Shown piece after piece: positions 14,649 to 15,422 of a stretch of 17,149 nucleotides of DNA. Every line of letters starts with the position of its first letter. The first letter of the stretch is position 1. The stretch is from a virus (Duplodnaviria > Heunggongvirae > Uroviricota > Caudoviricetes): positions 1 through 17,149 of the IMG/VR virus record IMGVR_UViG_2606217105_000018; one strand, given 5' to 3'. The notes below the pieces were generated by a model, which saw nothing but the letters and a program-made list of their open reading frames with translations, was not told where the DNA came from and made no database searches. A program made the position numbers and the translations under genes.

Positions 14649-15422
14649 ATGGATATTACTGAGTTTCCTTCTGGAGTAATTGAACACCTTGGCTGGTATG
14701 TATACCGATTGATTGATCCGAGGGACGGAAGCACCTTCTATGTAGGGAAAGGCAAAGGTAACCGCGTATTTGCCCATATGCGCGGTGAAGTGGCAGCGAC
14801 TGATGATGACGAGTTACTGAGCAACAAGCTAAAGCAAATTAGAGAAATAAGGTTAGCAGGACTTGAAGTTATCCATGTCATCCATCGACACGGAATGACT
14901 GATGAAAAGACGGCGTACGAAGTTGAAGCAGCACTTATTGATGCCTACCCTGGGTTAACGAATATCATGAATGGTGCTGGCAGCAATGAATTCGGCGCCG
15001 CGCATGTCAAAGAGTTGATAGCAACATATCAGCCCGAAACCATAACATTTCATCATAAAGCATTAATGATATCCGTTAACAGAAGTGCAAAGGATTCAGA
15101 GCTTTATGATGCGGTTCGATTTAGCTGGCGCATTAATGTCTCTCGCGCCAGCCAAGCAGAAATCATTCTTGCTACTGTAAGAGGGATCGTTCGAGGGGTT
15201 TTCATTGCTGATAAATGGCTCAAATCAACACGTGAAAATTTCCCTTCGTTGAAATACTGGGACGAGGATCCTGACTTTGAGGCAACACAAAGTTCGCGCT
15301 ATGGTTTTGAAGGTCGAGAAGCCCCACCTGAAATAGCAAATCTTTATCTTGGAAAAAAAATACCAGATGAATTAAGAAAAAAAGGAGCTATGTCCCCGGT
15401 CCGTTACTCACCTAATTTTTGA
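14649..15422 (+). CDS. GIY-YIG-like nuclease domain protein with uncharacterised C-terminal domain
   Basis: 257-aa ORF. The N-terminus [29 protein letters not shown] ... YEVEAALID fits the GIY-YIG pattern (Y-x-Y ... YVG ... R ... H ... E). The C-terminal 150 aa are unassigned. Transcribed divergently from the methyltransferase. Confidence 0.55.

Follow-up and report, generated by a model that had tools for sequence, protein, structure and literature searches.

A probable CMoRE (PD-T4-3) modification-dependent restriction gene beside an EcoRII-type restriction-modification pair at a prophage end

Background

The DNA analysed here, referred to as the window, is a stretch of 17,149 nucleotides assigned to the Caudoviricetes (IMG/VR record IMGVR_UViG_2606217105_000018, positions 1 to 17,149). 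Next to an EcoRII-type restriction-modification (R-M) pair it possesses a gene for a 257-residue protein with a GIY-YIG-type nuclease motif and a C-terminal part of no obvious affiliation. This raises the question of whether the gene encodes a stand-alone defence nuclease, a homing-type endonuclease or a mismatch-processing partner of the neighbouring cytosine methylase, the three roles considered in the original prediction, which was made from the sequence alone. The comparisons below favour the first role and assign the gene, with a probability of about 95%, to type I CMoRE (PD-T4-3), a single-gene type IV modification-dependent restriction enzyme.

Coding sequence and domain composition

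The gene and the parts of its product are located as follows.

14649..15422, + strand: coding sequence assigned to CMoRE / PD-T4-3, ATG start, 257 amino acids and a stop codon
14649..14993, + strand: N-terminal nuclease part with Y17/Y19/Y31, R39, H43, E93 and N105 (PF22945; alignment with phage homologues)
14802..14813, + strand: predicted acidic autoinhibitory loop D52-D53-D54-E55 (alignment to the crystallised CMoRE proteins)
15021..15419, + strand: predicted C-terminal domain sensing 5-hydroxymethylcytosine (5hmC) and glucosyl-5hmC (5ghmC), residues ~125-257 with an approximate boundary, including Y127 (ungapped against 9U75 and 9U7U; co-crystals of Liu et al.)

The open reading frame is real, being intact on the + strand and under purifying selection according to its dN/dS. 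The N-terminus displays the GIY-YIG-type motif that had been read there, namely G15-W-Y17-V-Y19-R-L, F30-Y31-V-G-K-G-K-G-N-R39-V-F-A-H43 and E93. In a Pfam search with the whole protein, LEM-3_GIY-YIG (PF22945) covers residues 28-110 above its gathering score (E 2.2e-14), and the generic GIY-YIG family (PF01541) is sub-threshold (E 0.074). Nothing in Pfam covers residues ~111-257, either in the whole-protein search or with the C-terminal 132 residues alone at E<=10, and the 257-residue protein finds no match in NCBIfam. The earlier statement that the C-terminal part matches nothing is correct for these domain libraries but not overall, as the corresponding part of the crystallised relatives is a modification-sensing domain. 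A LEM-3 or ANKLE1-like nuclease was considered and rejected, because only the GIY-YIG subdomain matches (PF22945, residues 28-110) and Pfam detects no ankyrin or LEM domain.

Compared with four phage-encoded homologues of 31-46% identity, the invariant positions are Y17, V18, Y19, F30, Y31, G33, K34, G35, R39, H43, E93 and N105 in the nuclease half, and W160, G179, V184, W190, R217, K236 and P239 in the sensor half. The arginine and glutamate expected of GIY-YIG enzymes are not missing, since R39 and E93 are retained even at this distance; their invariance and their canonical GIY-YIG order suggest that they form the catalytic pair. A family profile built from five sequences retrieves only 9U75 and 9U7U among PDB sequences, plus two chance matches at E>0.5. 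No copy of more than 60% identity is present in isolated phages among 50,697 phage records. The homologues in the jumbo phages Moabite, OBP and N1M2 are without the acidic loop.

Relationship to characterised CMoRE proteins

The protein matches the PADLOC model of PD-T4-3 (PDLC04031, E 7.6e-140) over positions 1-256 of 256, and PHROG 5356, listed as "unknown function", with an E-value of 5.7e-142. Among PDB sequences, phmmer finds 9U75/9U8D (E 5.1e-171) and 9U7U/9U7Z (E 1.6e-150), both aligned without gaps over residues 1-257, so that the part lacking any library domain (residues 121-257) is likewise gap-free against both crystallised proteins. Identity to CMoRE of E. coli O157:H7 (9U75), a protein of the same length, amounts to 97.3%, with the seven substitutions T51A, E55D, Q169K, I172V, N197H, S200T and L201M. 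CMoRE of APEC O1 (9U7U, 9U7Z) is collinear and carries the same motifs at 85.2% identity; it differs by 38 substitutions, 29 of which lie past residue 120. All residues named by Liu et al. are present in the window protein, i.e. the tyrosines Y17, Y19 and Y31, the interface residues R80, V92 and L96, the sensor residue Y127 and the acidic loop. The latter (residues 52-55) reads DDDE in the window and APEC O1 proteins and DDDD in the O157:H7 protein. A single-sequence AlphaFold2 model reaches a mean pLDDT of 39.8 and a pTM of 0.29, and the fold assignment therefore rests on the sequence identity to the crystal structures.

The protein family is already discovered, mechanistically dissected and crystallised, and nothing contradicts the identification. 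RefSeq product names in hundreds of E. coli genomes are "LEM-3-like GIY-YIG domain-containing protein" or "hypothetical protein", the former being a domain name and not a functional assignment. The practical value of the identification is a correct annotation: a characterised 5hmC/ghmC-specific restriction enzyme is carried under uninformative labels in both RefSeq and PHROGs.

Published properties and proposed mechanism

PD-T4-3 was renamed CMoRE by Liu et al. (Nat Commun 2026, PMC12923530), with the structures PDB 9U75, 9U8D, 9U7U and 9U7Z. The system originally emerged from the functional screen by Vassallo et al. 2022 (PMC9519451), the main text of which does not use the name PD-T4-3; both the link to this screen and the origin from ECOR68 are given here as attributed by Liu et al. 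(PMC12923530). CMoRE expressed from a native promoter lowers the plating of T2, T4 and T6 ~10^5-fold in a non-abortive manner; with its own promoter the O157:H7 allele is active and the APEC O1 allele defends weakly, the latter needing a stronger promoter for a robust effect (PMC12923530). Purified CMoRE binds DNA with 5hmC or glucosyl-5hmC and degrades it, and it ignores unmodified or 5mC DNA. It has no strict sequence specificity but requires base modification, and leaves host DNA intact; among T4 variants, T4(hmC) is restricted and T4(C) escapes (PMC12923530). Cleavage requires two modified cytosines, follows the pattern CN11/N9G and leaves 2-nt 3' overhangs (PMC12923530). In the native host E. 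coli NILS69, deletion of PD-T4-3 sensitises the strain to two of the phages that infect it, LF73_P1 and LF73_P3, and the gene cloned in K-12 guards against four Tevenvirinae phages (bioRxiv 10.1101/2024.12.20.629700).

Structurally, the nuclease domain is of the GIY-YIG type, most similar to the one in UvrC, and has an additional, third tyrosine (GIYxY-YIG; Y17, Y19, Y31); the roles of the three tyrosines were shown by mutagenesis (PMC12923530). A 15-residue acidic loop, placed between helices alpha2 and alpha3, covers the active site; in the 4A mutant of the loop, ordinary DNA becomes a substrate and the protein is toxic. CMoRE assembles as a tetramer, and the V92S/L96S exchange abolishes oligomerisation as well as defence. 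[quoted passage not shown]

The mechanism proposed for the window protein is borrowed from this 97%-identical crystallised enzyme, and the results computed here are identity, residue conservation, genomic setting and selection. By analogy, the protein would form a homotetramer, a dimer of head-to-tail dimers, that grips DNA via its C-terminal domains. These would recognise 5hmC or glucosyl-5hmC, two modified cytosines ~21 bp apart being required, and the N-terminal GIY-YIG domains would make a double-strand cut of the CN11/N9G type in the presence of Mg2+ or Mn2+. The acidic loop (DDDE, 52-55) over the active site would keep out unmodified and 5mC host DNA, and the enzyme would therefore not be toxic to its own cell. 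The expected outcome is a direct, non-abortive destruction of incoming T-even phage DNA. Cleavage of 5hmC/5ghmC DNA, sparing of C and 5mC DNA and protection against T-even phages are accordingly predicted from the literature on the closely related allele. The EcoRII-type R-M pair would attack unmodified CCWGG-type sites and produce 5mC, which CMoRE would ignore; together, the pair and CMoRE could cover phages with unmodified and phages with hypermodified cytosine. As the product of the R-M pair, 5mC, is not a CMoRE substrate, the two systems can coexist.

Genomic context

Two mobile elements adjoin within the window, a P4-like satellite on the left and the end of a lambdoid prophage on the right, with the following features.

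1-1194: satellite integrase
5003-5569: satellite Psu (PF07455, E 1.8e-87)
7447-7674: C4 antisense and isrK RNAs in the satellite part
8428-10812: satellite alpha-type primase-helicase
11560..12774, + strand: EcoRII-type endonuclease (EcoRII-N E 3.9e-61, EcoRII-C E 2.4e-71)
12809..14284, - strand: C5 cytosine methyltransferase (PF00145, E 4.7e-78)

The methyltransferase gene and the CMoRE gene are divergently transcribed, as noted before, and are separated by a 364-bp spacer. From position 11310 on, the window and E. coli 2014C-3655 share 99.92% identity; in the latter, the final 23 nt of ssrA lie at the equivalent of 11310. The gene order in that genome is ssrA, EcoRII-type R, M, CMoRE, tail-fibre assembly, tail fibre, lom and J, i.e. 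the distal end of an ssrA-integrated lambdoid prophage, and the satellite appears to be inserted between ssrA and this prophage in the window. In strain JJ1887 the slot between ssrA and the tail-fibre-assembly gene is filled by RnlA/RnlB, which makes it a variable cargo position. The defence map of the window comprises a Menshen-type NsnABC in the satellite, the EcoRII-type R-M pair and CMoRE at the prophage end.

The CMoRE coding sequence is present in 838 of 5426 complete E. coli genomes (~15%) with at least 95.9% nucleotide identity, a frequency that bears on the choice of T-even-like phages for therapy. At least 26 genomes carry the exact allele of the window (100% nucleotide identity). 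The block of R-M pair, CMoRE and tail-fibre-assembly gene (tfa) is found in 152 genomes only (at least 80% of 10800-16100 covered), and about 82% of the gene-bearing E. coli genomes are consequently without this R-M pair alongside (152 versus 838). The R-M pair is therefore a neighbour and not a partner of CMoRE.

In the E. coli genomes the CMoRE gene is always located at prophage ends, and the cassette (14435/14448-15480) has different neighbours in four contexts. In O157:H7 it resides beside pinE in a cryptic prophage near tRNA-Thr/proA, as opposed to its position between R-M pair and tail-fibre-assembly gene of an ssrA prophage in the window; the two cassettes (~1.03 kb of upstream region, gene and terminator) share 94.5% nucleotide identity. 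In another context, where a Mu/e14-like tail module ends, its neighbours are IS1 and an acyltransferase; in a further one a truncated pinE adjoins it and a resistance region bounded by IS26 follows. The cassette is genetically autonomous, recurring apart from the R-M pair and with its own terminator hairpin. EcoRII-type R-M pairs of ~80% identity are, in turn, located on plasmids without CMoRE (H33, H34). An AraC regulator is also among the neighbours of CMoRE in other contexts.

Upstream region, terminator and cassette edges

Four noncoding features flank the gene.

14435..14457, no strand: left copy of a 23-nt imperfect direct repeat, GCATACTATGTGTCTACGGTTTT (repeat search), left edge of the shared cassette
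14448..14648, + strand: conserved ~200-bp upstream region, nearly invariant across three unrelated contexts (alignment)
15442..15491, + strand: terminator hairpin and T-tract (folding; inverted repeat), conserved with the cassette to 15480
15459..15481, no strand: right copy of the 23-nt direct repeat, GCATACGTCGTGTCTGCGGTTTT, forming the 3' arm of the terminator hairpin and the right edge of the cassette

The native promoter presumably resides within 14448..14648. A promoter scan of the + strand upstream of the gene detects no sigma-70 consensus promoter, and no obvious Shine-Dalgarno sequence precedes 14649. Downstream, folding demonstrates the terminator that had been attributed to the gene: the hairpin 15442-15480, followed by TTTTTCTTTTTT, has an MFE of -25.4 kcal/mol (z -3.76), and none of 200 shuffled sequences is as stable. 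A simple terminator consensus scan does not call this hairpin, probably due to its bulged stem and long loop. The hairpin is kept with the gene in three other genomic contexts. It is located between the convergent CMoRE and tail-fibre-assembly genes, the stop codon of the latter occupying 15492-15494 on the - strand.

The stretch that the window shares with the other contexts begins at 14435 in two cases (L003, L009) and at 14448 in the third (L002), and its right end is 15480 in all three. This unit of ~1.03 kb comprises the gene with ~200 bp in front of it and the terminator hairpin behind it. The edges of this unit coincide with the two copies of the imperfect repeat, 14435-14457 and 15459-15481, which are identical at 19 of 23 positions. 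By our own estimate, a 19/23 match anywhere in 1.1 kb would be expected about 0.007 times by chance, and the coincidence with both homology edges makes chance still less likely. A tentative explanation, which we regard as doubtful on balance, is that the CMoRE cassette (14435-15481) moves between unrelated prophages by recombination at the flanking 23-nt terminator-derived repeat. If this were true, terminator hairpins would act as "linkers" that shuffle defence cargo at prophage ends. As a weaker addition, the 4-kb block of R-M pair and CMoRE in 152 genomes may be favoured by selection as a two-tier barrier that stops both phages with unmodified and phages with hypermodified cytosine. Neither cassette mobility nor such a barrier alters the identity of the protein.

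Selection and allele differences

Nei-Gojobori dN/dS among four E. coli alleles ranges from 0.05 to 0.11 overall, from 0.05 to 0.14 in the N-terminal domain and from 0.04 to 0.16 in the C-terminal domain. Both halves are under purifying selection, and the gene is a real, maintained coding gene. A hypervariable, arms-race type of sensor had been suggested by the accumulation of 29 of the 38 APEC O1 differences past residue 120; this idea was dropped, as dN/dS of the C-terminal domain is similar to that of the N-terminal domain, and at the depth of four E. coli alleles nothing points to diversification of the sensor surface. Between the window and the O157:H7 alleles, T51A and E55D lie next to or within the acidic loop and the other five substitutions in the sensor domain. 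All seven are conservative, and four of them represent the common state in other alleles.

Alternative readings

A free-standing homing endonuclease of the I-TevI or Seg-like kind, spreading by cutting a cognate empty site, is a very improbable reading of this gene. It could draw on a weak match to PHROG 314 "homing endonuclease" (E 0.0022), on homologues in jumbo phages labelled "putative homing nuclease", and on the gene being a small mobile cassette between short repeats. The labels of the phage records are, however, unverified annotations by the depositors, and the cassette is cargo at a prophage end instead of an insertion into a conserved gene, without any intron or intein setting. NUMOD, IENR1 and HTH modules are lacking in Pfam searches, also with the C-terminal half alone at E<=10, and this half corresponds to the 5hmC-binding domain of 9U75. 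Cleavage by the published enzyme is modification-dependent and relaxed in sequence and spares host DNA (PMC12923530), which likewise argues against homing. Hardly credible is the third of the roles considered at the outset, an accessory of the EcoRII-type R-M pair, be it a Vsr-like T:G mismatch nickase acting in the repair of deaminated 5mC, or a subunit serving for control or as an auxiliary nuclease. The gene does adjoin the C5-methyltransferase gene in divergent orientation, and R-M pair, CMoRE and tfa are co-inherited as a block in 152 genomes, but in the great majority of the 838 genomes the neighbours are others (pinE, IS1/acyltransferase or the AraC regulator), and the same R-M type occurs on plasmids without CMoRE. 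Neither a Vsr-family nor any other repair-family match is found in Pfam and NCBIfam, and the published enzyme shows neither binding nor cleavage of DNA that is unmodified or contains 5mC (PMC12923530). In NILS69, PD-T4-3 and an R-M island act on non-overlapping sets of phages, with an additive effect only (bioRxiv 10.1101/2024.12.20.629700).

A further possibility, which we consider improbable, accepts CMoRE by descent but takes the window copy to be silent or altered in specificity, owing to its seven substitutions or to its local context (read-through or repression from the promoter region of the divergent methylase gene, no recognisable promoter or ribosome-binding site). This would agree with the missing promoter consensus and Shine-Dalgarno sequence and with the placement of two substitutions at the autoinhibitory loop and five in the sensor domain, as well as with the weak defence from the APEC O1 native promoter (PMC12923530) and with phage NIC06_P2, which escaped native but not plasmid-borne PD-T4-3 (bioRxiv 10.1101/2024.12.20.629700). 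On the other hand, the upstream 200 bp are ~95% identical to those of the O157:H7 allele, whose own promoter suffices for activity, the exact allele recurs in at least 26 genomes, a dN/dS of ~0.1 indicates continued selection on the protein, and the substitutions are of the conservative kind described above. We infer that the window allele is expressed and behaves like the O157:H7 allele, in keeping with its assignment to type I CMoRE.

Comparison with other enzymes

Type IV enzymes that depend on 5hmC/ghmC are also found in other protein families. PvuRts1I combines a PD-(D/E)XK nuclease with an SRA-like reader, and GmrSD consists of DUF262 and a DUF1524 HNH-type nuclease. PvuRts1I/AbaSI and GmrSD resemble CMoRE in targeting T-even DNA and in possessing a separate modification reader and nuclease within one system; PvuRts1I, in addition, depends on a pair of modified cytosines, its cut lying at a fixed distance (partly PMC12923530). 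The folds are unrelated, however, CMoRE being composed of a GIY-YIG domain and a reader without detectable homologues.

Within the same family, PD-T4-3Capno of Capnocytophaga is a modification-dependent nuclease of 48% identity to the original PD-T4-3 according to its authors (PMC12366544). It degrades the DNA of T4 and not that of T4-GT7, and mutation of its active site abolishes the nuclease activity together with the defence; the DNA of phage Mu, which contains carbamoylmethyl-adenine, is reportedly degraded as well (PMC12366544).

The catalytic fold and the Tyr/Arg/Glu/Asn constellation are shared with the N-terminal domain of UvrC, with GIY-YIG type II enzymes and with I-TevI, UvrC being the closest structural neighbour (PMC12923530). 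CMoRE is devoid of UvrC, NUMOD or sequence-specific DNA-binding modules and, as stated, scores below threshold with the generic GIY-YIG family of Pfam. Unlike all three, it possesses an extra tyrosine (GIYxY-YIG) and the 15-residue acidic insertion.

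Prophage end and edges of the CMoRE cassette

Defence cargo is exchanged at the prophage end that holds the restriction nuclease CMoRE. Comparison of window 11332-15491 with E. coli JJ1887 (locus L008, 2523-5057) revealed the same slot, which extends from ssrA to the tail-fibre-assembly gene and in JJ1887 is filled by RnlA/RnlB, a toxin-antitoxin pair, together with a recombinase fragment, replacing the EcoRII-type restriction-modification pair and CMoRE. The CMoRE cassette, i.e. upstream region, gene and terminator hairpin, is flanked by the two copies of a 23-nt imperfect direct repeat (window 14435-14457 and 15459-15481, 19/23 nt identical). 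Homology to three other prophage contexts is bounded exactly by these copies. Of the two, the right one also makes up the terminator hairpin's 3' arm, and a degenerate inverted-repeat partner arm (I1) is present at 14397-14421, 80% complementary to 15460-15484.

In E. coli O157:H7 (locus L002) a tRNA-like fragment (7968-8038, minus strand) is located immediately left of the cassette. Its match to tRNA-Sec/class II tRNA is sub-threshold (27.5 bits, E 0.0018); judged by eye, it resembles the 3' part of tRNA-Ser(CGA). CCGGTTTTCGAGACCG is common to the fragment and the beginning of the cassette (window 14452-14467), and the fragment may represent a relic attachment site. In E. coli EJN001 (locus L003) the cassette is directly followed by a stretch of ~100 nt (9042-9135) that matches the ssrA-end/att-adjacent sequence of window 11310-11413 with 72.6% identity. 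This arrangement hints at a former direct contact between the CMoRE cassette and an att site.

P4-like satellite and NsnABC

Window 1-11332 comprises a P4-like satellite with the following features.

Features of the P4-like satellite (window coordinates; strand where assigned)
1-1194: integrase, P4-like
within 1203-4370, +: NsnA (PADLOC E 8.6e-123; Pfam GmrSD_N/DUF262)
within 1203-4370, +: NsnB (PADLOC E 1.6e-99; AAA_15/AAA_21/DUF3696)
within 1203-4370, +: NsnC (PADLOC E 2.5e-124)
5003-5569, -: Psu (PF07455, E 1.8e-87)
5828-6637, -: 269-aa ORF without Pfam match
7447-7524: isrK RNA
7587-7674: C4 antisense RNA
8428-10812: alpha-type primase-helicase

The final 23 nt of ssrA are found at 11310-11332, and therefore the satellite appears to be inserted in tandem, with ssrA on one side and a lambdoid prophage on the other. 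NsnABC is a second defence system of the window: three co-oriented genes, each matching one PADLOC Nsn model and together forming the Menshen system. They are flanked by the integrase and psu, an interval that is the known satellite defence hotspot.

CMoRE homologues in phages

Four phage loci encode full-length, two-domain homologues with 31-46% identity to CMoRE.

Phage-encoded CMoRE homologues (locus coordinates)
L004, 3001-3765: Serratia phage Moabite
L005, 2992-3753: Pseudomonas phage OBP
L006, 2998-3744: Klebsiella phage N1M2
L007, 2956-3723: Escherichia phage PhiR41_1

The carriers are virulent jumbo phages and one Escherichia phage of ~108 kb; some of the homologues are annotated as "putative homing nuclease". 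They keep the catalytic and sensor-domain invariants, and possess a K-T/S-P-x-x-S-D-type sequence where CMoRE has its acidic DDDE loop. They may act as a phage-versus-phage weapon. No CMoRE copy of >60% identity occurs among isolated phages (50,697 phage records). In contrast, 15% of complete E. coli genomes carry the CMoRE gene, in prophage ends.

Tail-fibre region

Right of CMoRE the window contains tail-fibre sequences.

Tail-fibre features (window coordinates)
15492-16076, -: tail-fibre-assembly coding sequence
16076-16582, -: tail-fibre ORF fragment, abundant in G/S/T/H repeats

Rfam IS009 (RF02111) has a full-length match at 15535-15733 (minus strand; 229 bits vs a gathering score of 117) wholly within the tail-fibre-assembly coding sequence, an overlap of this "sRNA" family with a protein-coding gene. 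Long ORFs overlap on both strands at 16448-17149, and look like artefacts of repetitive, compositionally biased tail-fibre coding sequence.
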